A stretch of 34,102 nucleotides of DNA from Fistulifera solaris. Lineage: Eukaryota. Where the stretch lies: assembly GCA_030295235.1 (NCBI GenBank), contig AP026135.1, positions 1,240,001 to 1,274,102 of the forward strand, given 5' to 3'. Shown here piece after piece: positions 1-33,899 of this stretch. The notes under the pieces are model-generated. The model was not told the DNA's origin. It ran no database searches and saw only the letters and a program-made list of their open reading frames with translations. Each line of letters opens with the position of its first letter. The stretch's first letter is position 1. Position numbers and translations under genes: made by a program.

Positions 1-943
1 CATGACAATGTATGACAGATATGACCGCTCCGCTCTAATCTAGACCGAAGGAGAAAGAAAAAGTGAGCCTAAATCGCGTCCCTAACCAAATTGTAAACAG
101 AGGACAGAAGCGCAGCCGATTGAAAAATAAAACAACTAGTCGTGCTTTGTCGTAAACGTTCCGGAAAGAGAAAAGACCTCCGTACGATAGGCGACTGCCT
201 TAGCGAGAGAATGATCTTCTGGTCGCCTCGCTCACCACCTAACGCCTCTAATCTGATTTCCAAATGAACACACCTGTTGTTTCTAAACGCGGTAAAGCCT
301 TTCTCTTCGTTGATATTTTATCAAATCCAAAATCCAGCCGTTGAAGACAATGGGCTTGGCTGGGTTGGGTGAGTGAAAAAAGAACGAGGAGAGAGAAAAA
401 CGAATAGTCCGTTCCCTACTCAAACACGACACACAAACAGGCCGCTGGCTTCAACTCCGCGTCCAAGACCAGAATAGTCAATAGAGTTCTATCCTTTTAC
501 GATGCATGGAAAAGTAAATCAAGCATCTGTCTGTCGGTCTGACAGATGGAACAAAATTTTTCAACATCGACTAAAGTATACTTCAGTCCCGCATCCTGTT
601 TTGAGATTTGATTTGTGATTGCTATGCGCCATTTTGGTCCTGTTCGCCTAAAGGTAGGCGTGAAAGACCGTAAACAATACTCCTTTTTCATCTAAAAGGA
701 GTCAGGAAAGAGGAAGCACTCCGGCTTTTTTTCATCGATGACTAGCTAGCTAGAAAAAGGATGCAAAGCTAAATGCAACGCTGTGCTATAAATGGAAATA
801 AGGGCGCAACCTCAGCTTCTTCCAGAAAAAGAAACGCCAAAAGCAAAGTATCACAAAGATTTGACATAAAGTTACGGTGACTATACTTATTGAAAAAAAC
901 TATTATATTTCCGATGTGAATATGTTCAAAAATGTGAACTATT

Positions 944-2515: not shown

Positions 2516-3215
2516 TATGAAGTTGTATTGTAAATAACAAGCAGTTACTTCGTCGTTGTTTGACTGGTGAGATGAACGATTTGTGAGAGGATCGAAATGC
2601 CATGATATTTTGTACCTCTTTTCGTCGACGAGGTGAACGAGGAAGTAGTCGCTGAAATTTTCGGAGAGAAATGAGGTGCAAGATTGACGGGCGATCCTTT
2701 TTGTATCATTGAGGCGTTATAGCATTTATTTTGATAAGTAAGATACGGTATGGAAGTTATATTTGCCGTTAACGAATGAGGACGGTGAAAAAAGTGGTTG
2801 CGGTTGAATAACGTTTATCGGAAAAACAAGACTTTCAACAGACCTATCTTCAGTACCGACAATTGCCGTTGAGGAAGTTCAATGGACAGATGAATGCGTC
2901 TCTACGGTTTTGATAACGTTATTTATTTAGCGATTACGTAGTAGGATTAATCGCAGAACTTCAACTTTTGCGCCACGCACTTGTCCCATGTTGCCACGTG
3001 GTGCGTGTTGTACGGGTATGTCGTGGAGTTTCGTGTTTCGCGGATCTCGTCTCTTATCTAAGCTTAGAACGACCTAGCTAGAATAGACGACTTCTTTTTC
3101 TTCGTCGCTCCTTAATAAGATGTTCAACTAATCAAACAAAATTTAGCTTACAGCAAGAAGAAGACCATTGCGCCGCTTGGAGGAGAGAAACTAAATATAA
3201 AACCGACTACAGTCT

Positions 3216-4283
3216 CTATTCAGCAGAATCAAGGAGAGTCAAAAGAAGCTTTTCGTATTTTCCACCTGTTTCCCCTTTGATTCGTTCTTTCATATCTGTC
3301 GAATATTCTTCTGCATGTGCAATCATTACCTCTTTCAAAATACCGGAGTATCGAATTAAAGTCGCTGTCAGCAGTAGTTCGTTGCTCCCTAACCCTTACA
3401 CGCCCGGTTAACCAAATCAGAGACCTGTTTGATAGGGTTCAGTTTCATTCCTAACATGAATGTGGCGGCATCACGAACATGGCCACCCAGTTCTTTTTCA
3501 AGAGCCTTGGTTAAACTATAGCCATGTTTTTCGGCATATGCTTGGTTTAACTTTTTAACATATTCGGGCGGAGACGCACATAGAATCTTGAACAGACCTT
3601 TCTCGTTTGTGCCCCAGCTTCCGATCCCAAATTCATGCAATGCGTCAATGTCTTCCTTAACTTTCTCGTCGTTGTGAAAGTCTTCATCATAGTCTTGCTG
3701 GGAGGCCTGCATCACATTGATCACCAACGCCTCCAAATTTCCACCGAGCTCTCTGTCCAGGACTCTTCCAAGATCCTTTGTTACCAAGTCGAAGAACTTT
3801 TTCTTGAGAAGTTCCATCTCCCTGTTTGTTCGTCCACAAATAATCGTAAATAGCAAAAGCTCGTTCGTTCCAGCGCCGTCGCATGCTTTCTCAACAAGCA
3901 TGCAATCTGCAGCCAATGGGTCTACTGCAAGCAGCTGCAAAGCAAAACCAAAGTCACGATTTCCGCACTCCGATTTCATGACAGCTCTAAGTTCTTTGCC
4001 GAACAATTCTTTGTATCGAATAGGAACCTTGCACCGCGTCGACGGAGACATGCTTCCCATGACTTTCAACAGACGACTAAACGGTAAAGTAGTAGCAATT
4101 CGATTAAAAGGAAGGCGAATAAAGTTATGCAGATCTTATCTCCTTCGAAACTTACTCTTCAGCCGTGCCGAATCCTTTGCAGGCCGCGTGAATCTCTTGG
4201 CAGATGTCATCGACTTCAGCACCGAATGCGTCCGGTGATAAATCCCCTTCGAGAATAATCTCCGGATAGAATTCAATACTCAT
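3216..4283 (-). CDS. Annexin (2 exons; intron 4077-4155; apparent 1-bp frameshift near 3390)
   Basis: Four annexin repeats with GxGT-type loops: KGFGTAED, DGAGTNE, GSWGTNE, KG(L)GSNE. GTAAG..TTTAG intron joins MSIEFYPE..GFGTAE to DRLLKVMG. Restoring one base near 3390 extends the frame through GSNELLLTATLIRY..GETGGKYEKLLLTLLDSAE* (stop 3216-3218). Confidence 0.9.
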
Positions 4284-4952: not shown

Positions 4953-5804
4953 ATGAAAATCAATGCCAACGCGGTGCAGTTTGCTTCACTTGACATGTCG
5001 ATGACCACCGACCATGATGATGTCCGATCTACACGAAAGCTCGTCTTCAAAAGTCATTATGGATCGAGTTTAGGAAAGGTCCCGTTGCGCACGGTCGATC
5101 GCGTTCGCTGTCGTCACCATGACGTCACTCCTTGGTTGACAGGCTCGGATGACGGACAGAATTTGCACCTCGGTCCTTTCCTCTCCACCACACAAAGCAG
5201 ATGGCCAGTTGTCACGGATCACTATACGACTTATGATTCCTCCAGCGACCTTCGAGCGAAAGCATTCGAATCTTCTACTCTCTTGACGACTCCAATTCCA
5301 AGCGACTTAGTCCCACAAAATAGCCCACTCAGAGGACTCTTCACAGGAGATTCTCGTTGTGCTCGCAAACCTCAAAAACTGCTTCACAGTCATTCCCCAC
5401 CATCACTTTTTTTTCAATCAAAAGCAAACATGGCCATGATGAGTCCTTCATCGTCAACACCAAGAAGTCGTTCCATCAAAATAGCAAGGACCAAGCGATC
5501 TGAACCAGACTTCGAGGCCGATGTGATAGACAGAAATAAGTCTTTGTATGACTCGGCCACTTGGAGGATGTACAACCGAATTACTGAATATCGACGGCAA
5601 CATCCTATCAATTATGATGACATGGATGCAGGCTCTACAGGAATCGACAGCATTCAGAGCAAGTCACCGATGTTTCTTCCTCGCAAAGAGTCATCGACTC
5701 TTTACGGCCCACGGGCACTGAACCGAGTTCTGATGTCAGTTGGTCCGGTGACTCCACGAGAGCAACACAAGCTGGACGGGGAAGTTTTTGATATGGATCT
5801 TTGA
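4953..5804 (+). CDS. Hypothetical protein, diatom-type (YDxxTWRMYxRI motif; alternative start at 5430)
   Basis: Long open frame. The C-terminal part has LYDSATWRMYNRITEYR and ends EVFDMDL*, a pattern I recognise from uncharacterised diatom proteins. ATG 5430 has an A-rich start context. Confidence 0.6.
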   Translation: MKINANAVQFASLDMSMTTDHDDVRSTRKLVFKSHYGSSLGKVPLRTVDRVRCRHHDVTPWLTGSDDGQNLHLGPFLSTTQSRWPVVTDHYTTYDSSSDLRAKAFESSTLLTTPIPSDLVPQNSPLRGLFTGDSRCARKPQKLLHSHSPPSLFFQSKANMAMMSPSSSTPRSRSIKIARTKRSEPDFEADVIDRNKSLYDSATWRMYNRITEYRRQHPINYDDMDAGSTGIDSIQSKSPMFLPRKESSTLYGPRALNRVLMSVGPVTPREQHKLDGEVFDMDL

Positions 5805-8627
5805 TTCGTCTAGAAAAACAGAGATTACAAGCTATTGTTTGCTGATGTATGGCAAACAAACCAATGCATCGCGCGCTTCATTTACATCATTCCTCGTTTA
5901 GCAACACACTTCGCGCTTTGGCGTTTTTACGTTCTCATTGCATGAACGCACTCAAGCTATTACGTTAGACTAAATTCATAAAACAGCATAGATGATAGGC
6001 AATGTTTAATGTAGAAAGCTTCTTTTCTTAGAAATCATGAGCTTACTTCCTTGACGTTAGTGTGGAGTATTCGGATGATTCGCGCGAAGCAACGAAAATG
6101 ATCAATCTTTGGCAAGATTCGCATACATTTCACTGTTAGTGAAATGTTATTGCAAGGCCATTTACATTGAAAGATGCGCTCCTCTCTAGCTCCTAGCCAT
6201 TTGGGAGTTGGCTTCCTTTCGAATCTTCGACCTTGGATCGTGGCTTGTGCCTCTAGGGCGCCTAGCGCCTAGCGCAGGCGAGTTTGGAAGAGAATCAACG
6301 GTTACTGTTTTTCGTAGCTACTTATCGGCGGATGACCGTTTGCCGTATGCCCTCCGCCAACCAATTTCTTCCACATTACGAAAACGAGAACCGTGGCAAT
6401 CTACAATGTACAAGGTACACTCTACACTCACCTCCCCAACTCGGCCGACAGCCACTCATTTCCACATCACGCACGAGCTAAGAAATCCGACCCTTGAAGT
6501 TTTTCAGCTGCCTTTGCTTCATGACTACTTGATTTAGTCGGAGTCGAAGTGTCAGTTGACTAACGTAGAGCAACTTTTGGAATAAGCCGTTTTGGGTGCT
6601 CCGAAATTTTTCGAATTCTACAAAGTCTGAAATATGACGGAGTATTTACGTCGGAGTTTTACAGTTCACACTTCACACCTACACTGTTCATTGTTCATTG
6701 TTTACTACAGTAGATGATATTTATTAGGAGGAAAATTAGACCTTATGATGATGATTTTCACATTATTTATCTTATTTAGCTGCATTAGTTTGACTCTATA
6801 AGGGTCGCATGTTTCTCAGCATCGTGACCTACTGGTATAACGCTAACGCTTCATGTTTCAAACCAAATATTGATGAGATGTTCTATCAATCTGGTTGTCA
6901 TTTCATAGAATAAAAAAGTAGTATCTTTGGGCAATTTGCACTTGAAAGCTCTCAAATAAAGAGGTGGAAACATAGGTTAAGCTAGTTTTAATTTTTACAT
7001 CTGCCCGGCGAGCCTCTGGACCATGATCATTCCAACATGCTCGACTTTCCGCCAGAATTGTCACTCATCATATCCGATCATACTTGCTATTTTCTAATCT
7101 ATAAATATGGCAAAGGAAGCTTTGACTGTTACGTTTGGCACTTATTCGGGTGAAGATACGGTGAATTCTGTGGACAAGCAAGTAACTTCACTGTTTTGTA
7201 CCACCGTGTACATATTTTGGAGTTCCGTGTGTAGGTTTGAGATTTGGTAAGCCACGGCAAATATATTGATAGAAAGGTGGAACATAAGCGGGAACAATTT
7301 GTGGACTCTTCGTTGAGTTTTTGCTGTTCTATTACAAGTGAAACGGAACCACAATGAATAAGTTCTTGCAGCACTTCTCAGCTTTAACTGGGCTGTCAGG
7401 TATCTGTATCATAAAGTCAGTTTATAAATAGTTCTTCTTGTAAGGAGTGGACGGGTATCGAGTTCAAAATAATCCATCAACCCATAGCAAGCACGCAAGT
7501 AGACGTGTGGCCAGCACTAATTTGAGAGGCAGTGGTCCACTTTTTGTCTTGTTTGACCAACCATTTGGTGCAAACTCTGTCGATCCCGGCGTCTCATAAA
7601 AGACCGCATTCTTGCAGCGTCCATTGCAACACGGTCACGTTGATAATAATCAATACCGGCAACAACGAAATGGGATCTACAGATGTATACATACATATCA
7701 CATGTAAAAAGTCGATCAAAGGGTTTCACTTCGCAACGAAAGCACAATTTTCTGCTCTGCTACGCCTCCGTATTGTGGCATAAGATGTTGCCGAAGGTAA
7801 ACGTATTTCGCGCGCGAGAATGCCTGAATGCATTGTATATTGTTCAGCATATGGACCATTGCCTCTTCATATCGATGGGCTGCTCCAATAGTTTGAGAAT
7901 CTAATGGAATCCAACGATTGCTAGAAAGGAAAGACATTTGAAAAAAGTGAGCTGCGTGCGTTGAACTGAAAACCAGAAACGTTCATAATTTTTAATTGTG
8001 GAGCGTCTTCTACGATCGGAGCGGTACTCCAAAAGTACGGCGTATACACTCGCCTATTAGATTCTCGAAAAGAGTGAGAATCCAACTTCTTCTTGAGCTC
8101 CTAACCTTAGCTCCCTAAGTCTATGGTCTAAACGCTGTTTTGATTCCATCAAAACTTTAAACATATCCAAAGGAATGTCGACTATCAGACCATCGATTGG
8201 AAACACTGCATTTACACTCATTTTTATCATACCTACAACCCGCCCGTGGAAATCGAACCCCAGTCGAAACCCGAATTTTTGATGGATGCCGAAGAGCTTT
8301 TAATGAAAAACTTTTGTAACTGTTTTCCATCAAGCGTGTAAGTCATATGAAGATAGCTGCAAACTCCGACATTGCACATTGCTCTCAGCAGGAATTCCAC
8401 AAATGATGTAATATATCCAGCGATCCGAGACTTCAGACTTTCTCCTGATTTGTCGAAATGAAGGGACTTACTCTAGCAGGCTTTTTGATTGATCGTTTCT
8501 GTGCCCCGTCAGTTTCCTTCACAAGGTACAAAATGAAAGCACAGGCAAAGCTGCGATCATAACTCCACTTCGATGAAGACGACTTCTTTGATTGGAAGTT
8601 CTATGCTCTATAGACACTTCGTTCATT

Positions 8628-8732
8628 AATCTTCACAATTCGGCCCAGTTCGCCACACTGAGGAAGCTTTCGTTCATCGAATCTTCACAATTCGGCCCAG
8701 TTCGCCGCACTGAGGAAGCTTTCGTTCATCGA
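8628..8732. repeat. 52-bp tandem duplication (2 copies)
   Basis: AATCTTCACAATTCGGCCCAGTTCGCC(A/G)CACTGAGGAAGCTTTCGTTCATCG at 8628 and 8680, one mismatch. Confidence 0.95.
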
Positions 8733-9416
8733 AGAGTTACTCAAACGCAACTCCGCTAGGAGGTTGCCAAAATCCAGACTATTGCAGGATGAAGATCGTC
8801 TACGTGCTTTCGTTCCTCCTGGTAGCTTGTGATACGGTTCCATGACTTCAATATCATCCACTGTGTGTGCGGCATAGTCTGCAACCACTTGTGCTGCCCT
8901 TTGCGCCTTTTATACGACATCCGCTGACACGCTCTTGTAAAAATCCGCAAGCAGAATCGAGTTGAGCTTTCCCAGCTGTTGCTGTAAATCTTGTTCATTC
9001 AACACGACGTCCCAAGCCGCTAACCGGCTAATGGCTCTTAGCTTCTTTTCTTCTGCATCAAGATGCGTGATACCAAGGGTTGTGTGCAATGCATCGCTCG
9101 CTCTACGGCCTTGCTCCAGTTGCCTTACGGACTGTCGAACATCTCGTTTATATTTGAAATAATCGGCTTTCTGAGACGTGGAGGTTGCATTTCGCAAACG
9201 GAGACAAGTATCCGCGGAAAAAGGACCAGAATAAGAAACGTCAACAATGAACAACTCTTTTGATACAGCAGAGAGACTCGCTCACCTCACTCCAAGTTGC
9301 CTTTTTTCATCGACTGCGTACATACTGCGACGGGGAACGACTCTGTAAACTTCAGCAAATTCGTGGAATGAAATGCCTTTCTTGTTTCCTTTCGCAGCGT
9401 GTTCATTCCATTTCAT
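8685..9416 (-). pseudogene. Diatom-type hypothetical gene, disrupted (frameshift near 9305, in-frame TAA at 8910-8912; intron about 9172-9286)
   Basis: Reconstructs as MKWNEH..KKGISFHEFAEVYRV..EKKATWSE|KADYFKYKRDVRQSVRQLE..AWDVVLNEQDLQQQ..LLADFYKSVS..*KAQRAAQVVADY..AEL*. This matches the common diatom pattern V.F..V / W / VL.EQ..Q / LA..Y. Confidence 0.55.
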
Positions 9417-12387: not shown

Positions 12388-15300
12388 CTAGGCGTGGATA
12401 CGAGAATGACGCGGACGGCGGACACCATTGGAGGAATTTTCGTCGTTCACCTCGACATCGAAAGCAGATGTGGCCGATCGCTTGCGCTGAGATCGCACTC
12501 GACTCAAATACTCCATTAGATCGCCATCTGTAGGGTTCTGAAAATTATAAGCACCGTTGAAAACCGTATGAATATCAATGCCATCTTCTTCCATACCCTC
12601 AAGGTCGTGAAGGAGTTTGGGTGTGATGAGGAAGTATTGTCCTGGGTGGTCGTTCGGATCATTGTTGCGAAAAGAAGTAGAATTTGCCACGATGCGCTTG
12701 AAAACGAGACGTTCATTTCGCTCGTCCAATCCCTGATTGATCTCGTCGACACAGCGGAATGGTGCCGCCATACTATCTTGAAGTGCCATCAAGTACAAAA
12801 TGGTAGCGACCGATCGCTCACCACCGGAATGCCGATGCTTCGACAGCACTTGTGCGTCTGCACCTTCTCGAAAGCTGACCAGAATTTCAATACCCCAATC
12901 CTTGAAATTGTTGAACTCATTCACATTGGCCCTTTTCAACTTGATGGATCCTGAGCATGACATTTCCTTCATGTATTCACCAAACTTCCTGTCCAGTTCA
13001 GCCACGTTGTCCGACACTTTCCTTTCCCATAAGCTCTTTTTCTTGTTGATATCGGCAAGCAACGAATCCTTATTGACCGTGAGATCATCAAACCTGACTT
13101 TAGCCTCGGCGTACCTGGCTTGTAGTGCTTCGAGCTGTCGAAAAATACCATTGTTTTCGTGGATCGAGTTCACAACGGCTTCCGCCTCCTCCAACGCTGC
13201 TTCAGTTTCTTCGAAAGTAATAACTTCTAGTGCTTCTAACTGATCTTTGAGAGGCAGCGCATTGCCATTCTCGTCCTGAAGTGGGGCGAACCTTTCCGCA
13301 TACGCCTTCTTCTCTTTGGCTTGCTGTCTCAATCTGTTGTATTTTTCTTGCAAACTAATCGCCGCGTCTTCAAGCGCTTGGAATTGTTCTTCCTTCTCCT
13401 TCAGCTCGGCACTTTCAAAAATTATATTTGATTTAGATGACAAACGATAAAGAACTAACGGTGACCTCAAAACAATACAATACTCACCTAGCAATTTGCT
13501 GGGCTGCCATGGATGTGCGGCGGTCCAGTGTAGCACACGCCTGTAACACCATGCAGTCCATCAACTGCCGTCGAATCTGTGCATGCGATTCTAGAGCTTT
13601 GATGCTGTTTGTCTGGCGGTTCGTAAGCGTCTTGAGCAACTTCTCCTTCTCTGGCTCATCCTCGGTATTCAACGCGCTTTCTGCATCCTCTAGTTTCAGT
13701 TCCGCTCGATGGACTTTCAGTTCCAACTTCTGCAAAGCTTCAACCTTGCTCCTTGCATGTGTCCAAGCTACCTTTGCCTCCTGTGAAGCGTCTCTCAACA
13801 GGACCTCCTGGGCTTGAGCCTCTTGCAGAGCTGGACGACGTTCTTCCATTTCGCGATGCGCTTCCTCCAACCGATCCTGTAAATCTTTCTCGGCTTGAGG
13901 GTTGGCACCCGTAGATAGCATGTTTGCTCGTTTTGTAATATCATCTTGTCTCATGTTAGTAAAGCCACCGCGGGAAGTATTGACAGTGTACCGAAACGCT
14001 CGATCTTGTCCACGAGTAAACAGACAGAACCTATTGGGTTTTCCACCAGGTTGCTCAGGCGCGCGCAGGTTGTCCAGCAATTTATGCCTGTCTACGTTCG
14101 CTTGTGCTTTTTCAGTTCCAACGATTGCCTGATGCACCAAGGCATATGAGCGAAGCGCTTGTAGCACCGAATCCGGACAGGTAAAGGTTTCATCCAAGTA
14201 GCCAGCGATACCGTGGTCGCGATACAAGGCCTGCATCTTCTGTTCCGAGTAGATACGATTAATGGGTTCAAGTCTCCCATCTTTAACATGAATGGTCGTC
14301 ACTGCCGGGACTTTGAGCACTTTGGTGGTGATATCGTAGAGACGTTTCTGGTCTTCCTTCGTCTCGACAACGAACGCTTTCAATACATTATTGGGTGTGT
14401 GAAATTCAAGATATTCCGCAAAACTCTGGTCTTTCATAGTAATCTCAGCCGCAATCGGCCCATACACAGGCCTGCAAAATTCATTGCGGTGCTGCTCAAT
14501 GTAGTTCGCAATTTTGGCAACGTTTGGATCAGCACGCAACACGGCCTGTCGGCGCTGAGACTCATGGTCGCGGACTCTGGCGAGCTTCTCTTGCAAGGTC
14601 ACAGCGCTTTGCCTGGCCTCTTCGAACTGCTCCGTGAGCGCGGTGATGGTGCGGCGGACGTTATCGTATTCTCTGCGGGTGTTCTTGGCCACCAGAGCCG
14701 CCTCGTCAAAGGCTTGCTGCAACTCCCCCTTGGATTCCGCTTGCGCGACACTCTCCTGCAACGCCTTCAATTGCTCCAGGCACTTTTTATACTCGTCTTT
14801 GCGCTTTTGACGGAGCTGTGAGAGACTCATGATATCGTTCATGATCGTTTCGATCTCATCATCGTGTTTGGTGAACTTATCAATCTGTTTCTTCATGTCC
14901 GCAGTGTGACGCTGAATTGTAGCATCCATATTGCGCATGACCCCTTCTGCCGTCTTGACATGCGTTCCAAGGCGTTCCACTTCATCTCGCAGAGGCTGAA
15001 AGTCCTTTTGGGCTGCTTGCATTTCTGCTTTTGCCCTGACTTTGTCCTCTTTCGCCTGAACAGCTCTGTCACGGGTGTGTTCAAAGTCCAACCATACTAG
15101 CTTTTGTTTGAGAAGTTTAGCTTGTTCTTCGGCCCGTTTTCGATCTTCCATGCGTTCCTTTTCGCGTTCCATGGGTTCGAGTTGTTGTTGCAAGCTCTCG
15201 ACTTCTTTCTTGACTGTATCGACCTGTCCTGCGGAGTGAACGATCTTTTCTTCCGCCTCGATGAGTTCTTGATGCGTCTGGTAGCAAAGCTGTCCTGCCC

Positions 15301-15823
15301 AAGTTTTCTGCGTTTCAATTAGTCGCTGCTGATCCGTGAGACCGGAGAAATCTCCAACTCTATCCTGCGGAAGGAAGGTACAGAGATTATCGATCGAAAT
15401 GTTGTATCCTTCCTTCACCAACTTTTGGAGTTCCTTAAGCTTCGCTTGGCGTCCATTGATGTAGCAAATGCCTTTCTTATTTGCTTCATCCGATGTAAAG
15501 ACTCTCTTCAATACGTGCGTTTCTTTTCCTTTGTGCGGCGCTAAAGTGATTTGGATCCATCCACTCTCGCAATTGTGTCTTACAAACGAATGCAATTGAT
15601 CCGCTCGACCGAGAAGCTTGGGATCTCCTCCTAATCCCAAGCAAATAGCGTTCAATACAGTCGATTTACCGGTTCCGTTAGCCCCAACGACGATGTTGAG
15701 TCGTGGTTTCGGCTGAATGACAGCATTAGCGTGCGTCATGAAGTTATGCATGACAACTTCGACGATCGAGCCGGGTTTGTATTCGACTTGGGTTTCGTCG
15801 TCATCATCGCGTCGATCGTTCAT
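12388..15823 (-). CDS. SMC5: Structural maintenance of chromosomes protein 5 (intron 13412-13487)
   Basis: Walker A GANGTGKS, SMC5-type DNLCTFLPQDRVGDF, coiled coils and hinge, signature HSGGERSVATILYLMALQ, Walker B FRCVDEINQGLD. GTGAGT..GAAAG intron joins the two ORFs in frame. Confidence 0.96.
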
Positions 15824-16102
15824 TTTTCACAGCGACAAATGTGAGATATAAAGACAAGACTTCATCGATTGTTTTTCAGTTCGTCAAGGAAACGAAGAAG
15901 CAACTCGTCACGGTTGCAAGTTGCAAGAATGTCATTGCATGAGGATAACGGGAGGGAGATTTTTGTTGCGAAACGAAGCGCGAGCGATGTGAGGATGGTG
16001 AGGCGGGAGATTTTTGAAGTGCGCTCTTGTCGAGTAGGTATGGCTCATGGCTCGCGTGCGCGTCGGCCCGGCCGGCGGATTGCCGCGAAGACGACCTCCC
16101 AG

Positions 16103-18156: not shown

Positions 18157-18792
18157 AGTTGAATTGAAAAATGTGTCAAGGTGACCGGGATACGAATTGT
18201 TGCACATGGTTGGATCGAGTAGTTTTCGTCGTTCCACTTCCAAGCAGAGAGAGGCGTTCGAGCAACTCGTTGCACAAAAGACATCGATCATGAATGCTCA
18301 GGATTCTGTGCCGTTCGACAGACAAAACTCTACCGTATCAAAACATACGAGCGCTCTTTAATGACGTGCGCACGTAAAGTAGTAATTCATTCTATTTCAC
18401 ACTAAGGCTCGACCATCGCGCATGCTCGTAGTAGCTCGTAGACTCAAAGCACACAGATCATCCATGCGAGGCTAAGCGCAAACATCCACCGAAAACCAAT
18501 ATCTATTTCCTTCTTCACAACGGCTTATAAGTACTTGTAGGTCCATGAATAAATTCGAGACATGTAGATGAATGTTGTGTAACGTAAATTAAGCAGCCTT
18601 ACTTGAAACGCATAACGAATGTTCGCGTCCAAATAAAGAGTCCGGATCAAGAAGTCATGGGCCTTAACTTTACCATGACTGGATTCATTCATGAAGAATC
18701 ATGAGTCATCTCATGATCAACCCATTCTCGTCCGCAGCATTTATTTTTTTATTGCTGCATGTGAATTCATTTCGGAAATCGCGCTATTCAGC

Positions 18793-21122
18793 ATGAACAA
18801 ATCTCCTGGAGTGATTCAATTACTCCCCCAGGAAGTCATTGAAAGAATCAAAGCGGGAGAAGTCGTTCAAAAGCCCTCCGCAGCTGTCAAAGAGCTCGTC
18901 GAAAATGCCCTCGATGCGGGCTCCACGGAAATCATAGTGCAAGTTTCGACGGATTGCTTGCGGGAAATTTCCGTTCAGGATAATGGATGCGGTATCTCGG
19001 ATCTGAGTCTCGCTGTGCAGCGGCATACGACATCAAAATTACAAAAAGTCGACGATTTATTTGCATTGCAAAGTTTTGGTTTCAGAGGTGAGGCTTTAGC
19101 CAGTATCGTGCAAGCAACAGGACGAGTTCACATTGTCAGTCGAACGATAGATCGCCCTGTTGCGTTTCAACAGAGTTTTTCCCCCGCATCGAAGCAAGCA
19201 TCTAAGGCAACACCATGTGCCCGCACACCTGGAACGACCGTAACTTTGCACGATTTGTTTGCGACGATGAAGCAACGACAAAAAATGACGAATGATTATC
19301 CTTCGATTTTACAGCTTCTACAAAGCTATGCCGTACTTTATGCGCCACGAGGTATCTCATTTGTTTGTCAGAAGCTGAAGAAGGCACAACCGGATCTCAA
19401 CACTGGGTCTATTGTCAAACAAACTCAACAACACTCCGATTATTTAACAGAGACACACGGGCTTTTATCAGTATCGCAGCAAGAGGTTACCAAAAAGTAC
19501 TAGCTCAGATATATGGATCGCAGCTCTTGGAAAGTCTTGCTTACTGCGAATCAAAACTTTTGGGTAGAGAATACCAACGCAAATCAAACAACAACAAGAC
19601 TACAGCTAAATCAGACGATGTGAATCTTTCGTTGCTTTCGGACATGGCAGGCATCCCAACGCATGTTGCTAATGTTGAAGATGCTGCTCGTGTCGTCAAG
19701 GTAGACGACGAAATCTGCTTCTGTCAATTCTGGTGTCTCTTCACCAAGCCAACCTCGAAACACCTGCAACAGCGTACATCGTTGAATTTGATTCTATTCA
19801 TCAGCAATCGACTTGTTGAATGCGCTCCGTTGAAAAAACGCTTGGAAGAACTCTACTCGAATGGCAAGCATTTGATCTTTCTTGCCATTGAGGTCCCCCC
19901 GCAACAGGTCGATGTAAACATACATCCTACGAAAAAGCTTGTGGCTTTGCTGTTTCAAGAGGAAATCATCGAACACATATCCACCACGCTGAGCACTACG
20001 ATGAAAAATCTCGACCGCGGCTTTAATGCTTCCCAGGTACTTGTGGCATCGTCACCATCTGTATCGAACAGAAATCGTGTGCGACCTCAAATTTCGGAGG
20101 CTAAAAACGATCCGAGCACTTGCGAAGAAAACGAGAACACGAATGCACCAGCCACTAATCTCAACCCGTACAAAAAGAAGCCTCTCTCGTCAAAACGCGT
20201 GAGAACTGATTACAACGACCCACGGGGCGCCATGGAGCCATTTCTTTCTCAAGAGTCTCCTCACGAGGCAAACTGTCCACTCGTATGCCCATCTTCCGAA
20301 GTTGATTTGACTCAACCCGGTGCTTTTGCGGATGTAGCCAAACAGTGCACATGTCGGCAAACCATCCGTTTACCACACCACGTATTTTGTCGCCCAAAGC
20401 GAATACCGCCCACTGAGTGCACGTATAAATCAATTGCACAGTTGCGCCGACCGCTTTTCGAGCCCCATCCGTATACTTTAAAACTGCGCACGGGGTACCA
20501 TATTGGAACGGTTTCTGCATACCGGAGTTTGATACAATGCGGCAAAGAGTTGGTTTTAATGAATCATTATCGCGCTGCAGTTGAGTTGTTTTACCAGATT
20601 GCGCTACTACGCTTTAACGGTGGGGCCGCGGTAGCCTCCATAGCCTTCGCTGTGGATATCGCATCCGCCGTGACGGCCGCACTTCAATTAGAGACAAATG
20701 AAAGCAATATTATGGCCAAAGAAGCTGCTATATGCCTTTGGGAGCATGCGGAGATGTTGCAAGAGTACTTCAGTATCATACTGGCGTTAGATCCAGACGG
20801 CACAGTCGTTCTGAAGGGCTTACCGATTTTGCTGGACGGGTGGGAGCCGATGCCGCATGGTTTGCCGCTATTTCTCCTTCGTCTGGCTACGAAAGTGAAC
20901 TGGTCAGAAGAAAAACCCTGCTTTGATGACATTTGTCGTGAGCTAGGTTGGTTCTACGCGGAGCTACCTTTCAAGGAACACGAAATTTCCAGTTTTGTTC
21001 GGCACACCCTCTTTCCGGCACTTTCGACTTTGATGGTGGTCCCTCGGTCTTTCGTTGACGAAGGAGGGATGGTTACGTTGACTTGTTTGGATAACCTGTA
21101 TCGAGTATTCGAAAGGTGTTAG
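18793..21122 (+). CDS. MLH1: DNA mismatch repair protein MLH1 (apparent 1-bp frameshift in A-run at 19492-19496)
   Basis: GHKL ATPase motifs ELVENALDAG, DNGCGI, HTTSKL, GFRGEAL, GTTV; VDVNIHPTK; the MLH1-specific C-terminus FERC*. Confidence 0.95.
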
Positions 21123-22276: not shown

Positions 22277-23811
22277 ATGGCGACATTTAAAGAAACCGTA
22301 AGTAACAAGACGAAACGAGAGGCAATCTTCTTTCGTTGAGCATTCCTATTCTGGCTTTTTCTCATTATAAAATCATTTATTTTTATTTTCTTTGTTTTTT
22401 AGCCTTTTAACGGCTTGAAGAGCCTCGAGGAACACGATCCGGAACTTTTCGATCTCATCGAACAGGAGAAATCTCGTCAATGGCGTTCTCTTGAGTTGAT
22501 TGCATCGGAAAACTTCACCAGCAAAGCGGTCATGGATTGCTTGGGTAGTGCTTTGACGAACAAGTACTCGGAAGGCTTGCCGCATGCTCGATATTACGGT
22601 GGCAATGAAGTAGTTGATCAGGTGGAAATTCTTTGTCAGACGCGTGCTTTGGAGGCGTACGGACTCGACCCTACAGAATGGGGCGTCAATGTGCAACCAT
22701 ACTCCGGTAGTCCAGCGAACTTTGCTGTGTACACGGCACTTCTTCGTCCGCACGATCGTATTATGGGCTTGGACTTGCCCAGTGGTGGTCACTTGACCCA
22801 CGGATTTTACACTTATTCCAAGAAGGAAAACACCCGCAAGGCAGTGAGCGCCACATCGGTCTACTTCGAGTCGCTTCCTTATCGCGTTCACCCGGAAACC
22901 GGATATATCGATTATGATCAGTTGGAGCGCGATGCTGGCCTGTTCAAGCCCGCTCTTATCATTGCTGGTGGTTCGGCCTACCCTCGCGAGTACGATTATC
23001 CTCGCTTCCGTCAAATTGCCGATGCCAATGGCTGCCTCCTTATGATGGATATGGCGCACATTAGTGGACTAGTCGCAACTGGCGAAGCAGCTTCTCCATT
23101 CAAATACTGCGATGTCGTCACTACCACGACCCACAAGTCTCTTCGTGGTCCTCGTGCCGGGTTGATCTTCTTCCGTAGGGATTCGCGTGACTTTGAAACT
23201 AGAATCAATCAGGCTGTTTTCCCCGCTTTGCAGGGTGGTCCTCACGAACATCAAATTGCGGGTGTTGCTACTCAGCTTAAGGAAGTAGCTACTGATGATT
23301 TCAAGCTCTACGCCAAGCAAGTCAAGGCGAATGCAGTTGCTATCGCCAACAAACTGAGCAGCATGGGATACAAGATCGCGACAGGAGGCACTGAAAATCA
23401 TCTTATTTTGTGGGATTTAAAGCCTTGCAATATCACTGGAAGCAAATTTGAAAAGGTTTGCGATGCCGTCAGCATCACATTGAACAAAAATTGCGTCCCT
23501 GGAGATCATTCGGCAATTACACCTGGTGGTGTTCGTATTGGTACTCCGGCCTTAACGACTCGCCGTTTTGGGAAGCCGACTTCGAACAAGTTGCCATGTT
23601 CTTGCACGAGACTTTACAAATTGCTCTTAAACTGCAGGATCAAAGTGGACCAAAGTTGAAAGATTTCCTGCCTTTGTTGGAGTCGTCGCCTGAAATCAAA
23701 GAGTTGCGCAAGAGAGTGCATTCTTTTGCAACGACCTTTCCCATGCCGGGTTTTGACCCCGCCACCATGAAATACAAGAACGCCGATGGTCCGGAGCACT
23801 TAATTGACTAA
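22277..23811 (+). CDS. SHMT: Serine hydroxymethyltransferase, probably cytosolic (intron 22298-22402; apparent frameshift near 23570)
   Basis: [38 protein letters not shown]-lysine motif [23 protein letters not shown] 7-codon first exon MATFKET and no organelle presequence. Confidence 0.96.
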
Positions 23812-27422: not shown

Positions 27423-27482
27423 TTTCTAGCAATCTCTGTGAGGCAAGGGTTAGGAATTTGGAAATTGGGATATGCAACTTGG

Positions 27483-27653
27483 TATTGATTATGCCTGTAG
27501 CCACTGCGACACCCATAAGTGACAGCGCCTCAGGCAATCCCAGATATCCCTCGAATCCAGGACTTCACTTCCTTCCTTCGCAATCGAGTAACATTATGCT
27601 CATTAATTCGTAGAACACTTTTGTTGCTGACTTTGATTTTATAGATATCAACA
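27483..27653 (+). repeat. 5' LTR (171 bp)
   Basis: TATTGATT..ATATCAACA, directly repeated at 33040-33211 with about 5 differences. Confidence 0.95.
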
Positions 27654-27665
27654 GTTCTACGAATT
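27654..27665 (+). other. Putative self-priming primer-binding site
   Basis: GTTCTACGAATT immediately after the LTR is the exact reverse complement of AATTCGTAGAAC at 27605-27616 inside the LTR. No TGG-starting tRNA PBS is present. Confidence 0.75.
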
Positions 27666-27778
27666 CCCGTTCTTATCATCACGTTCAGTGTATTCTCTCG
27701 GTTAGCCAGCGTCGCTATCACCCGGTGCCATCGTCGCATTCTCTTATCCCGCACAAGCGTGCTCTCCGTGTCATCACC

Positions 27779-30700
27779 ATGACTGACTTTTCATCTGCCT
27801 CCATTCGAGTGCCACACGAGCATCTCACTCCCATCAAGGGCAAACCATCCCTCGCCACCGTCGATCGCTTATACAGCGAGGTCATCGCCAACGCTTTGTC
27901 CGTCCCGTCTACGCATTGGGGGGCGGCACTCATGGCCATGTCGGTCTTCTCCTTTCTGGTGAGGAGTTTCGCGAACTCACCGGGCATGATTTTCAACCTC
28001 TCACCCATCCGGGCACCCTTGTCCCCTACCCTGCCAATGCCACAAGTGCACAGCGTGCAGATGCTAATCAGCGCCCACGACACGGCGATTGAAGATTACT
28101 TATGCGCCAGAATGCGTCCATCAGCTGCTCCGCCAACAAATCATCGCCGCCGTCGATCCCATTTACATGATGTCTCTTCGTGGCACCGAGATTGGATTGG
28201 GCCGTGTCAATTTGGAAACAGGGCGGGTGTCGGCCTACGCGATGGTAGTCTATTTGAAAGATAAGTTTACCAAGATCACTGCAGCCGAGATTGAAGCCAA
28301 TCGACTCAGTCTCGCCTCCGCTTGGACACCGGATCAGCCTATTCAGGCATTGTGGAATCGTCATGTCGAGATCCGGGATTTCGCCATTGCTGCGGAGGAG
28401 CCTTTGTCTGATCGTCTCGTGATGGATCAAACCCTTCTTCTCTTTCAAACTGCAGGTCACGGCACTCTTCAGTCCGCTTGCGACGCTTGGCGTCCGCCGC
28501 CCCCTCGCGGAGAAGACATATGACAACTTCATGAACTACTTTACTGAGGAACATGAGGCCCTCCAGGAACATCTTACCACCTCCGTCGGCGGGGTATCAT
28601 CATGCCAATTCGGCCGGTAGTGTGATCCCTCCTGGGGTCTCACCGGCACCTGCGGTTGTTCCCCAGTTAGCCGCTGCCAGTGCCACGGTTCCCGCACCCT
28701 CTGAATCCGTACGAAGTGGTCGCTGAAGGCCAGTTCGCATGTATTATTGTTGGACGCATGGCCTTGGCATGAACGCCGAACATACCAGCAAGACATGCAA
28801 CCACCCTGCGGACGGACACATTCACTCTGCCACACTCAAGTCCGCCAAGCATACCAAGGGCAGCAACAAAATCAACATCGGTGGCCGTCGGGCTTCTCCC
28901 CACGCCCGGTTGCTCCTACTGCTCAAGCATGAGGATGGGGGAAGCCTACGGTACACATTACAAAAGAACGATAAAGATACTAAACCATCTGAGTCTGCCT
29001 TTAATGTTTCTACTGTAGGTCCTCCCGCCCTCGTTTCCCCTGTTACTGATGGCATTGCCGATTCCGGGTGCACCAGTCACTTTTGCCCATTGACACACCT
29101 GTCGAATCATGCTTGCCAACAGCCAACCCCATCACCATTGCCAATCCCAATGGTACGCTCATGCATTCCACTCATGATGCAATCCTTTCGTTACCAGGTT
29201 TGCCACTCTCTGCTCGGCGGGCCCACATTGTCCCCGATCTGCACACGAAACCACTATTGTCTATTGGGCAGTTATGCGATGCCGGCTGTCATGTCGAATT
29301 CACTGCGCAGGCTATTCATGTCTATTACAACAATGCAGTTATCTTGTCTGGCTTGCGCTCGCCCATCACTAAATTGTGGACGTTGCCTCTTTCCTCCCCC
29401 TTCCCGGCGTCTGAGGGTGCGCCGTGCACCGCCGTTGCCCTTAACACCCTGGCGGTGTCTGTGGGGGACCCATCCCCGTCTCCGCTGACCGATGCTTTGG
29501 CGGTGTCGGTGGATGTGCCGTGCTCCTCTGCTCTGTCCCCTGTGGCGGTGTCTGAGGGTGTGTCGCACCCTACGCCATGTGATGGTCGCCCGTTTCTGTC
29601 TGTGTGTGAGCGGTGTCCCAACGTTTCATCTGCCCCCATGTCTGAGGGTGCCTCGTCACCGTCCCTATCTTTGGCGGTGTCTGAGGGTGCTGACACGTCA
29701 CCCGTGACTCCAGTTCCGGTTGACTCGGCCGGCTTTCCGAGTCGGCTAACGCCAGCGTTTCCATCACCACTCCCGCCTCTTTGGTGGCGTTTGCACATGC
29801 GGCACTCTTTTCTCCGGCATTATCCACTTTGGATGTTGCTCTCCAACGCGATTTATTGCCTCATTTCCCTGGTCTTTCGCGCGGCGCTTCGTGGCATCCG
29901 CCCATCTCTGTTGCCACAGCTAAGGGACATATGGACCAAATTCGCCAAAAACCTTCGCTCCACTAAAGCGCCTGGTATTTTGTCCGCCCCTGCAGATAAT
30001 GAGGCAGCCGTGCTCGATGACGCTTTTCCCCCTCCGGAACCGGACGCGGAGCGCTCTCACCATTGTTATGCCGGCATAATCCAGCCCACTGGCCAGACAT
30101 ATAGCGACCAAACCGGACGTTTTCCGGCCCTCTCCAGCACCGGTAACAACTATCTGTTCGTCATGTATGATTATGACAGCAACTGCATCTTCGCTGAGCC
30201 CATCGCCAGTCGCAAAGCTTCGGATATCTTAACAGCTTTCAAAACCGTCCACGCTACCTTATGCCGTGCCGGTCTTAAGCCCGTTTACATCGCTTGGACA
30301 ACGAATGTGACCTTTCATTGAAAGAGTTCATGGCGGACGCTGGCATTGATTTTCAACCACGCGCCTCATGTGCATCGCCGCAACGCCGCCGAACGTGCCA
30401 TCCGCACTTTTCAAAATCATTTCATTGCGGGATTGTGCAGCACAGACCGCAACTTCCCATTCATCTTTGGGATCGGTTATTGCCCCAGGCGCTACTTACC
30501 CTCAACCTTCTTCGCACTTCTCGAATCAATCATAAACTTTCAGCTTATGCCCAAGTCTATGGTGCATTCAATTTCGATCGAACCCCAATTGGGCCCCCAG
30601 GCACCAAGGTATTGGTTCACGAAAAGCCAGGACAACGTACCACTTGAAACCACATGCTGTCGAGGGCTGGTATCTTGGGCCTGCACTCGAGTCATATCGG

Positions 30701-33026
30701 TGTTTTCGCGTCTGGATATGGGATACCAAAATGGAACGCATTACCGACACCTTGGAATGGTTCCCGGAACACGTCACCATGCCCACCGCTTCGGCTTCCG
30801 ATCTTCTTTTGGCCGGCCTCCGCGATGTCACTCAGGCGTTGCGCACTACATCCATCACTTCCCCTCTTCCAGTTACCACCGATAGCCCGTTGCGAATTAA
30901 AAACTCTGGTCGACGCCTTATCGGGCGCCCCCTCTGTGGTCCCTGTTTCGCCCGTCTCCGCCGTGCTCACCACCCAGCATGCCTCCACCAGCACCCGTCG
31001 CAAATCCGTTACTTTCGCCCCGGATGTCCCAGTTGACCCTGCCGCATCGCCCCAACACTTCCGGTCGGTTGACACTCCCTTCAAAACGGTAACCCGTCGT
31101 CGCCCACGCCACAAGGCGAAGACCAAACCTCACTCGCAATCACCGTCAAGCCCCAACATCATCACGGCACTCGAGCCAATAAGACCGTTGAACTTGCAGC
31201 TTCTGCCACTCTCCTTGGCCCACCCGATGTTGATTCATCTTTTCTTCATCACGCTTTACATGGCAATGCGCTCAACCCGGACACTGGCAAGGTCGCTGAG
31301 TTTCCTGAGCTAAGTCGGTCGTCTGATGGTCCCCAATGGGTCAACGGCTTAGCGACGAAGAGGTTCACCGTTTAGCCCAAGGCTTCCGCCATATTCCGGG
31401 GTCCAACACTATTCATTTTATCTCCATCAAGGATATCCCCAAAGGTATGCGTGCAGCGTACGTTAGGTGTGGTGTGTGCTTACCGTCCGGAAAAAGAAAA
31501 ATCCTTTCAGCGTCCGTTGGTGTATTGGTGGCGATCAAATATATTTTGCCGGAGACAAATCTACCAAAACCGCCGCACTGGAAACCGCCAAGTTGTTTTT
31601 CAATAGTGTCTTGTCCACACCCGGGGCTAAAATGATGACTTTGGACCTCAAAGACTATTATTTGGGAACCATCTTGGGCAATTTGGAATACATTCGCATT
31701 CCCGTTAGCATTTTGTCCCAGCACATCATCGATCACTACAATCTGGAACCACTGATACACAATGGATTCGTGTATGCTGCAGTCAGCAAAGGCATGTATG
31801 GACTTCCCCAAGCCGGCAAATTGGCTAACGATCAACTTATTGCCCGCTTAGCTCCTCATGGGTATCATCCAGTCCCACATACTCATGGCTTGTGGCGTGA
31901 TTCCCGTTCGGATCTAACCTTCACCTTAGTTGTGGATGACTTTGCCGTCAAATACCGCGGATGATCGCGATGTCCATCGGCTCCTTCAAACTCTTAGCGA
32001 CACTGGTTATCGGTTATCCGAAGATTGGTCTGGTTCTCGATGCGTCGGCTTGAATCTTGATTGGGATTACAACAACCGCACTGTCGACTTGTCCATGCCT
32101 GGGTACATCGAGCGAGCCTTGACTCGTTTTCAACACCACGCCAACGGCGCCCGAGGATTCGCCCCACCCGTGGCAGCAGCCTACGTCACGGGGCCAAAAC
32201 GCAGTATGCAGAAGCCCCTGACAACACGCCTTACTTGGATGCCAAGAACATTAATTTGTTGCAACAAATCCTTGGCGTTCTATTATATTATGCTCGGGCC
32301 ATCGACTGCACAATGTTACCGGCGTTGGGTTCCATTGCAGCGTGTCAAGCCCAGCCTACAATGAAGACCATGGAGGCGTTAACGCAGTTACTAAATTATT
32401 GTGCATCTCACCCATCTGGCGTTGTTAAGCTGTCGGGGCAAGTGACATGGTATTGTGGATGCGACAGCGATGCTTCTTATCTCAGTGTGTCCGAAGCGAG
32501 GTCCCGTGCGGCTGGTTATTATTTTTGAGTTCCGATCCCACCAAACTTCCTGATCCGACTTCTCCTCCCATCAATGGCGCCATCACCGTTTATTGTCAAA
32601 TCATGAAACATGTGGTATCAAGTGCAGCCCGAAGCCGAACTTGGTGCGTTATTTCTCAATCGCCAAAATGCATGTCCTTTACGTGTCGCTTTGGAGGAAA
32701 TGGGCCATCCCCAACCTGCCACTCCAATCCAAACTGACAACAGCACTGCTGCGGGCATCGTCAATGACAAAGTCAAACAAAAAGCGCTCCAAGGCTATGG
32801 ATATCGCGATTCTATTGGATTCGCGACCGTGTTACGTAAGGTCAATTTCATGTGTACTGGAAGGCTGGCGCTGGAAACAAAGCGGATTACTTCACTAAGC
32901 ATCATGCTACTTCCCATCATCGCACAATGCGTCCAATGTATCTTCAAGACAATTCATCTACGTCTTATTACGAAGCCATCTCTCCTCATCAGGATGTTGC
33001 TATATCCGTTCCCGACTCTCGCGATT
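27779..33026 (+). pseudogene. gag-pol polyprotein (many frameshifts)
   Basis: gag YCWTHG..HTSKTC..GH; protease IADSGCTSHF; integrase YSDQTGRFP, DNE, RNAAERAIRTF; RT LDLKDYY, KGMYGLPQAG, LVVDDF; RNase H SDASY, EAELGALF, IQTDN. Confidence 0.92.
29405..29692 (+). repeat. Degenerate internal repeats GGCGGTGTCTGAGGGTG within pol
   Basis: CTGAGGGTG at 29411, 29552, 29642, 29681; degenerate copies near 29451 and 29499. They read AVSEG in the long frame. Confidence 0.8.
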
Positions 33027-33039
33027 GAGGGTGAGGGTG

Positions 33040-33211
33040 TATTGATTATGCCTGTAGCCACTGCGACACCCATAAGTGACGCGCCTCAGGCAATCCCAGA
33101 TATCCCTCGAATCCAGGACTTCACTTCGCTTCCTTAGCAATCGAGTAACATTATGCTCATTAATTAGGTAGAACACTTTTGTTGCTGACTTTGATTTTAT
33201 AGATATCAACA
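33040..33211 (+). repeat. 3' LTR (172 bp)
   Basis: Follows the PPT, matches the 5' LTR and is followed by the TSD CTTGG. Confidence 0.95.
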
Positions 33212-33357
33212 CTTGGAACTTGGAAAAGGAACTTAGAACTAGGTAAATAGGAAGTAGGAATCAGTAACAAGGGAGTAAGGAAGATGGAATAGAAGGAAAT
33301 GTTGGAAATAAGGAAAAGAAGAAGATTTCATTGGAAATGCAAATCAAAGTATCAAAA

Positions 33358-33640
33358 TTATTTTGTGCAACAAAGACATTTGCAGTTCTGAGTTCGTGCA
33401 TTTGGATCCATTTCACAGACTTTGATCAATGTTGTATCAAGGGTTAGACTTTGATCAATGTTGTACCAATGTGAATGGTGTCCTCTTTGTAGAATTGCTG
33501 GGTATGATCATAGAGCTTTGTTGTAGTGAGGTGGACAACTGATTCATCATTAATCATTATGGAAGGCGATTCCTTGCAGTGCATCCAAAACATGCTTGAC
33601 GCCAATTGTCAACGTCGGGGGCATGTGTGCAATAGTCGGA
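33358..33640 (-). pseudogene. rusA: RusA-family resolvase, copy 2 (3' part only, disrupted)
   Basis: [78 protein letters not shown] aligns with copy 1. Interrupted by small duplications near 33417-33470 and 33546-33559. Confidence 0.85.
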
Positions 33641-33899
33641 AGTGTGCAATAGTGGGAAGTGTGCAATAGTGGGAAGTGTGCAATAGTCGGGAAGTGTGCA
33701 ATAGTCGGAGGTGTGCAATAGTGGGAAGTGTGCAATAGTGGGAAGTGTGCAATAGTCGGGAAGTGTGCAATAGTCGGAAGTGTGCAATAGTGGGAAGTGT
33801 GCAATGGTCGGAGGTGTGCAATAGTGGGAAGTGTGCAATAGTCGGAAGTGTGCAATAGTGGGAAGTGTGCAATAGTGGGAAGTGTGCAATAGTCGGGAA
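33625..33899. repeat. 17/18-bp minisatellite, 16 copies, GTGTGCAATAGT(C/G)GG(G)AA
   Basis: Direct count of units; no spacers between units. Confidence 0.97.

Follow-up and report, generated by a model that had tools for sequence, protein, structure and literature searches.

A decayed diatom Ty1/Copia retrotransposon with a reverse-transcription initiation site apparently built for Tf1-like self-priming

Introduction

Minus-strand priming without a tRNA is, to our knowledge, experimentally known only from the Tf1 retrotransposon, and beyond this there are predictions for a few Gypsy groups and one plant Copia lineage. The Tf1 transcript pairs its first 11 bases with the primer-binding site (PBS) and is then cut by RNase H between bases 11 and 12 (PMC7175516). 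The predictions concern the Tf1/sushi and Tcn1 Gypsy elements and the plant Copia lineage TAR, including Houba and Osr-1, and call for a match of at least 10 bp that starts 0–5 bp after the 5′ LTR (PMC6317226). The sequence-only reading of the locus described here had taken Copia elements to be normally primed by tRNAs or half-tRNAs, a generalization that the TAR prediction qualifies. For the fungal GalEa Copia elements, the relevant part of PMC5445492 states that no complement occurs in the LTR or U5 and that the Tf1 model does not fit. For the diatom Copia-like elements, the main text of the CoDi paper (Maumus et al. 2009; PMC2806351), supplements aside, mentions neither primer binding nor tRNA nor self-priming, and the abbreviation PBS is used in it once, for the wash buffer. 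No paper was found that bears out the earlier suspicion that self-priming might already have been proposed for CoDi elements, subscription journals and unreadable supplements aside.

Here, we describe a site that we consider likely to be the reverse-transcription initiation site of a decayed diatom Ty1/Copia element, built for self-priming in the manner of Tf1.

Results

Element structure

The element lies in the window, by which we mean the whole 34,102-base stretch of DNA that was analysed, and consists of the following features.

27478–27482, + strand: 5′ copy of the TSD CTTGG, with the same letters as 33212–33216
27483–27653, + strand: 5′ LTR, 171 bp, TATTGAT...ATCAACA, aligned to the 3′ LTR
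27600–27604, + strand: initiator-like TCATT within GCTCATTAA, a conserved motif, with the predicted transcript start at 27602 or 27603
27605–27616, + strand: putative self-primer arm AATTCGTAGAAC, a perfect complement of the PBS, with homologous arms that covary in relatives
27617–27653, + strand: hairpin loop, 37 nt, placed by the hairpin geometry, its role predicted
27654–27665, + strand: PBS GTTCTACGAATT, from the first base past the LTR, complementary to the arm and matched by the covariance model
27779–29000, + strand: gag region, with the ATG at 27779 and a zinc-knuckle-like CWTHG...H...C near 28740, frameshifted; from ORF translations and tblastn against the gag of relatives
29000–33000, + strand: pol, in Copia order, in at least nine reading-frame pieces; from the ORF list and translations and a weak RVT_2 match
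near 29060–29085, + strand: protease motif DSGCTSHF, from an ORF translation
about 30150–30500, + strand: integrase-like DDE core (YDYDSN, LDNE, NAAERAIRTF), from an ORF translation
about 31400–32400, + strand: RT (LVVDDF), from an ORF translation and a weak RVT_2 match
about 32400–33000, + strand: RNase H, from an ORF translation
33027–33039, + strand: PPT GAGGGTGAGGGTG, directly 5′ of the 3′ LTR
33040–33211, + strand: 3′ LTR, 172 bp, from the LTR alignment, with the PPT before it and CTTGG after it
33162–33174, + strand: arm as present in the 3′ LTR, AATTAGGTAGAAC, which has lost its complementarity to the PBS, from the LTR alignment
33212–33216, + strand: 3′ copy of the TSD CTTGG, directly after the 3′ LTR

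The limits of the 5′ LTR are fixed at 27483–27653 by the PPT, the CTTGG on both sides and the 3′ LTR. They were thus set without recourse to the repeat formed by arm and PBS, and the PBS begins at the first base past the 5′ LTR. The LTR termini in the window fit the ends found in the family, T(G/A)TTGA...TCAA(C/T)A, and the GGTGAGGGTG present in the window PPT also precedes the 3′ LTRs of two relatives, L006 and L063, in which the same layout of LTR, TSD and PPT is found.

Judging from the RVT_2 reverse transcriptase and the order PR-IN-RT-RH, the element is of the Ty1/Copia type, and it has the short terminal inverted repeats of the LTR, the 5-bp TSD and the PPT before the 3′ LTR that go with this assignment. 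The domains are faint in the window itself, where a Pfam search of 12 ORF pieces returned a single match, to RVT_2 on 31467–31964, which is weak (E 0.0018) and with 18.4 bits lies under the Pfam cut-off of 31.6. A protein search found 38 relatives that are 63% to 30% identical, the sole named one being from the diatom Fragilaria crotonensis. All of the 29 relatives that were aligned, with nine short or most distant ones left out, contain RVT_2 (best E 8e-10), and SH3_retrovirus is present in 18, Pol_BBD in six and rve, weakly, in three of them; Pol_BBD and SH3_retrovirus are placed upstream of the RT. Pfam searches with three related proteins and two gag ORFs gave only sub-threshold RVT_2, and the profile of the polyprotein alignment gave no match at E ≤ 1 among the PDB sequences. 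Membership in the Tf1/sushi clade of Ty3/Gypsy was also considered and rejected, as the RT is that of Copia and the integrase-like core lies upstream of it, instead of the Gypsy order PR-RT-RH-IN. Between protease and integrase, imperfect direct repeats of 45–48 nt occur at 29395–29690 and encode a low-complexity stretch rich in proline, serine and valine.

Compared with the 5′ LTR, the 3′ LTR has two one-base indels, one substitution and a C-to-AG change within the arm, which reads AATT-C-GTAGAAC in the 5′ and AATT-AG-GTAGAAC in the 3′ copy. This arm variant had already been noticed in the sequence-only reading and was found again at 33162–33174. Since the 5′ arm is still a perfect complement of the PBS, the 3′ arm is the changed copy, and since both new LTRs would take their arm from the parental 3′ LTR under the self-priming scheme, the difference would have arisen after insertion. 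Decay is its simplest explanation because the copy in the window is a frameshifted relic. With its reading frames broken and its 3′ LTR arm mutated, this copy is dead.

That the frameshifts are wholly assembly errors was considered and found unlikely, the host genes in the window being long intact ORFs; with such intact neighbours, the element's broken frames probably reflect genuine decay. Relative to the window, the short-read run X1 has about 1% of substitutions and about as many indels, in the non-coding flanks too. Some contigs of this run lack the element and pass straight from 27482 to 33224, a form that resembles an empty site and belongs to paralogous repeats.

The remainder of the window contains several host genes and, next to the element, repetitive DNA. 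The silicon transporter among these genes points to a host that is a diatom or some other silicifier.

944–2716, − strand: silicon transporter, intact, 590 aa (Pfam Silic_transp, E 4.7e-221)
12388–15826, − strand: SMC/Rad50-like gene
18679–21122, + strand: Mlh1-like gene
22403–23659, + strand: SHMT gene, 418 aa
33603–34092: two adjoining satellites, one with a 17-nt unit (about 15–17 copies), the other with 7/14/21-nt GAGAAGT/GAGATGT units

The summed contig depth in run X1 is 2423 over 33499–33700, compared with about 45–70 over the element and the left flank, and the immediate flanks of the element are also repeated (X1 depth 181–375).

Primer-binding site

The arm at 27605–27616 and the PBS at 27654–27665 are reverse complements over 12 of 12 nt and stand 37 nt apart, so that the claim first made from the letters, namely that the 12 nt after the 5′ LTR are the perfect complement of a segment within it, is borne out in full. 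With up to one mismatch allowed, the 12-mer occurs only twice in the window, as the arm and as the PBS, whereas the expected count is 0.14 and none of 100 shuffles contains two matches. The RNA of 27602–27670 is predicted to fold with −16 kcal/mol (z = −3.94), a value equalled by none of 200 shuffles. With 12 bp at offset 0, the site also falls within the published in-silico definition of self-priming. In the sequence as read, no TGG occurs within about 70 nt 3′ of the 5′ LTR, which agrees with the earlier statement that a PBS of the TGG type is missing.

Related elements

A metagenome scan with the polyprotein alignment gave 602 stretches, 507 of which encode relatives, and the best 80 were kept, corresponding to 78 loci. 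A blind scan of these loci for perfect inverted repeats found one of 10–16 nt, with a loop of 23–61 nt and letters that differ by locus, in most of the loci that reach the region upstream of gag. The 3′ arm of the repeat always stands directly after a conserved LTR terminus (TCAACA, TCAATA, TCATCA, TCATTA and others) and is followed by the gag ORF. It starts at the first base past the LTR in each of the 46 hairpins, among which 37 distinct PBS 12-mers are found. The position also holds where the LTR limits are independently defined, the PBS beginning at LTR end +1 in L002, L006 and L063. The last of these is an independent full genomic insertion with the TSD CATCC, a PPT and an LTR at 292–436, and its 13-nt PBS from 437 pairs with 395–407. 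The first base of the PBS is G in 45 of the 46 hairpins, and none of the 46 has TGG at the PBS start.

In a test anchored on position, the first 12 nt past the LTR were compared with their best ungapped complement 15–90 nt upstream. This covered 48 LTR-to-gag junctions, namely that of the window, one in each of 45 loci and two in L050, the 32 remaining loci of the 78 having no 5′ junction in reach. Complementarity was 12/12 in 33 junctions, 11/12 in nine, 10/12 in five and 6/12 in one. The match thus amounts to at least 10/12 in 47 of 48 junctions, with the complements 23–61 nt upstream, and the pairing on whose conservation in relatives the sequence-only reading had staked its proposal is retained. 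As a control, 15,337 random positions in these loci were examined, of which 45 (0.3%) reach at least 10/12 and six reach 12/12. The sole junction that lacks complementarity, that of L038 (L038:1-110), is preceded by little sequence, with gag beginning after 106 nt; this stretch contains TTTACCTAGCTC, which resembles an arm, and TTATTAATA, which resembles an LTR end, and the 13 nt that follow do not match. L038 may be a recombinant or rearranged copy.

Thirty of the 46 hairpins were aligned with MAFFT, the 16 omitted being two exact duplicates, near-duplicates and those with the longest loops. In the alignment, 96.1% of 356 cells are paired, and when the partner is slid by 1–3 columns the pairing is only 25–37%; the pairing percentages are biased upward because the hairpins were first chosen as inverted repeats, a bias that is addressed by the junction test with its random controls and by the search with held-out hairpins given below. 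Cells in which both partners have changed number 103, as opposed to 25.0 ± 4.2 in shuffles, of which none out of 500 reaches 103. Covariation of the two 12-mers, which had been named beforehand as a check, was examined across relatives, with compensatory change at 11 of the 12 pairs. At the junction itself, the terminal C of the arm and the first G of the PBS are invariant in all 30 aligned hairpins. RNAalifold independently arrived at the same 12-pair helix, and on the hairpins of the relatives it found no inner or second conserved helix, the loop alignment being poor.

A covariance model was built from the 30 aligned hairpins, with the other 16 held out. It recovers all 16, together with the imperfect hairpin of L053 and five 3′ LTR copies, and its 53 matches at E ≤ 1 all lie on the sense strand, with none antisense. 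The window is matched at 27593–27670 with 47 bits and E 1.3e-7, and at the 3′ LTR copy of the arm in the window the model gives no match at E ≤ 1.

An inner stem of TGTTG at 27622–27626 and CAACA at 27649–27653, which had been described as extending the fold, is present in the window copy and fares less well in the family. Complementarity to the LTR-terminal pentamer inside the loop is found in one of the 46 hairpins only, that of the window, and as CAACA is merely the conserved LTR terminus, the stem is probably a chance feature of this copy.

A block of A-(C/T)-C-(G/T)-T-T-T follows the arm in most family members (columns 28–34 of alignment A3; 27617–27623 in the window). It stands directly past the predicted RNase H cut and could be a cleavage or strand-transfer signal.

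Scans for tRNA genes, which covered the window and 60 of the 78 loci, gave none. Two further observations concern the loci as a whole. In L008, L014, L051, L005, L012 and other loci, the contigs are circularly permuted with terminal redundancy; in L014, for example, positions 1–3941 equal 5314–9254, with a period of 5313 nt. This is as expected of LTR-collapsed assembly, tandem copies or one-LTR circles. In addition, gag and pol are in the same frame with one stop codon between them in 33 of the 37 loci that have a readable gag end. The stop is mostly TGA and sometimes TAG, and usually six bases and then GGG follow (L002, L006 and L014; e.g. L006:1269-1271). Stop-codon readthrough is unusual for Copia elements, and the arrangement looks like a programmed readthrough of this kind.

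Transcript start

The LTR has a single conserved block, (TAG)CTCATAA or CTCATTAA, which stands immediately 5′ of the arm and whose CA is invariant in all 30 aligned relatives. The pattern CA[CT][AT] occurs within −15 to +5 of the arm start in 45 of the 46 hairpins, and 3–5 nt upstream of it in 39. In the window as in the family, the motif agrees with TCAH(+1)W, the Inr-like consensus proposed for diatoms (PMC4686930), and the family motif resembles the oomycete initiator YCAYTYY (PMC3599244). A start near 27605, as originally proposed, is thereby favoured indirectly, through the conserved initiator-like TCATT at 27600–27604, and we infer that the transcript begins at about 27602–27603. A start at the A or T of the motif would leave 2–4 unpaired bases before the arm in the family and 2–3 in the window. 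No contig of the loci has the poly(A) or poly(T) end that would point to an RNA origin. Run X1 contains 62% of the sampled words and looks like genomic DNA, as the flanks and the element are at similar depth (26800–33700); two other runs, X2 and X3, gave no coverage of this stretch.

Discussion

The initiation site described here combines a PBS that is complementary to its own LTR, an exact position at the LTR end, conservation and covariation throughout the family, and an initiator-like motif just upstream of the arm. The proposal that the PBS pairs with its own LTR and that no tRNA is used has gained strong support from the relatives, with 47 of 48 junctions matched, 37 PBS variants and the covariation between the paired segments. 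Transcription would begin at the initiator-like TCATT in the 5′ LTR, at about 27602–27603, and RNA bases +3/+4 to +15 (27605–27616) would then fold over the 37-nt loop onto 27654–27665. By analogy with Tf1, the RNase H of the element would cut the RNA after C27616, a step at which the invariant C:G of the junction may hint, and the freed 3′ OH, paired to G27654, would prime minus-strand DNA. The new DNA would be extended across the loop (U5 and R) as far as the cut, after which it would transfer to the R of the RNA 3′ end. The primer would in turn be copied into the plus-strand PBS, like the tRNA primer of a retrovirus, and a change in the arm would reach the PBS in one cycle. Such copying would explain why there are many different and yet matched pairs of arm and PBS.

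The way in which LTRs are formed requires the 3′ end of the primer to pair at the base that follows U5. This bears on the possibility that the hairpin between LTR and PBS is a conserved RNA or single-stranded DNA structure that serves another purpose, for example in packaging, dimerisation, the control of translation or strand transfer, while another primer acts at or near the same site. We regard this as improbable. Covariation proves pairing and not priming, and the conserved A-Y-C-K-T-T-T block past the arm counts in favour of such a role; nevertheless, a structure of other function would have to begin in all 46 hairpins at precisely the base where the primer 3′ end must pair, to keep the terminal C:G at the priming junction invariant in 30 of 30, and to bury the only candidate PBS, as no alternative TGG... 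PBS follows.

Considerably less probable still is a host tRNA, or a fragment from within one, as the partner of the PBS, in the manner of the half-tRNA priming of copia, Osser and Bianca, with the copy in the LTR being incidental or a mimic. The arm endings ...TAGCTC and ...GTAGAAC are loosely like the start of a tRNA D-arm, a resemblance that may count in favour of this explanation. It is opposed by the 37 PBS 12-mers within one family, variable at 11 of 12 positions and each matched by its own LTR, and by the fact that none of the 46 PBSs begins with TGG. The tRNAs are conserved and would hardly serve the PBSs of this family, as these vary at 11 of the 12 positions. Lineages that are primed by tRNAs keep one PBS, according to parts of PMC6317226 and PMC5445492, and this also argues against a tRNA primer here. 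Finally, the complementarity in the window might be an inverted repeat that arose by chance, or an error of assembly. The degraded state of the copy might speak for this, as might the short-read run, which differs from it by about 1% each in substitutions and indels. The explanation has a negligible probability and is refuted in practice by the shuffles (0.14 expected with one mismatch, two matches in none of 100), by the held-out model search and by the junction test, in which 47 of 48 junctions, taken from assemblies that are unrelated, have the same feature at the homologous position.

Tf1-like self-priming in a diatom-wide Copia family with heavy covariation would widen the known range of this mechanism to the stramenopiles. 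The family also provides a natural mutational series of 37 matched primer and PBS pairs, with an invariant terminal C:G and a conserved block past the cut site, which could be used to dissect the recognition by RNase H and RT. Diatoms such as Phaeodactylum are transformable. Stress-activated Copia elements have been described in such diatoms, as reported in part of PMC2806351. Annotation pipelines that retain LTR candidates only if these have a PBS of the tRNA type, as with the LTRdigest filtering used in PMC7466962, may discard elements of the present kind; if so, the Copia content of diatoms is under-counted. A host defence in which 3′ tRNA fragments target the PBS and silence tRNA-primed elements is discussed in PMC7472051, and self-priming, if true, would escape it. 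A further reading, which we put forward as doubtful, is that self-priming is the rule in a large, old diatom Copia lineage and, together with TAR, maybe the ancestral mode of the Pseudoviridae and not two late inventions. Under an ancestral mode, the copying of primer to PBS would allow both segments to change in step, and the 37 variants would be explained in this way.

The proposed diatom self-primer resembles those of Tf1 and Tf2 from Schizosaccharomyces pombe, of Tf1/sushi and of Tcn1 in that the PBS abuts the 5′ LTR and is complementary to 11–12 nt of the element's own RNA, which in the diatom element are predicted to lie near the 5′ end. As in the Tf1 group, the PBS does not seem to be of the tRNA type and the 3′ end of the putative primer faces the first PBS base. 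The Tf1 group, however, consists of Ty3/Gypsy chromoviruses, while the element in the window is a Copia element with RVT_2 and with an integrase-like core and SH3_retrovirus upstream of the RT. In Tf1, it is the very first RNA bases that pair, whereas the diatom arm seems to begin 3–5 nt past the predicted start, and Tf1 has a second stem of the U5-IR kind, whereas none is conserved in the diatom family, the inner stem occurring in one of 46 hairpins and the loop alignment being poor. Self-priming of Tf1 is established by experiment, and that of the diatom element is predicted from sequence.

Among Copia elements, the fungal GalEa is without a tRNA PBS, as the diatom family also seems to be, and has a conserved hairpin at the PBS position; in GalEa the hairpin is formed past the LTR by a local palindrome (PMC5445492), whereas the diatom complement lies inside the LTR, as in Tf1. 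The CoDi elements share with the present family a diatom host, a 5-bp TSD and a gag and pol that are split by one stop, and the LTRs of about 145–172 bp in the window family compare with 163 bp in CoDi Blackbeard (PMC2806351), a likeness of host, LTR length, TSD and stop. The plant TAR elements Houba and Osr-1 belong to the Copia superfamily as well and have a self-primer in silico. They are likened to the diatom family by the priming criterion, their host being a plant and not a stramenopile, and where the TAR prediction is made from matches in single elements, the diatom family shows covariation throughout. Self-priming as such has precedents, and it appears not to have been described before from a Copia family of diatoms.
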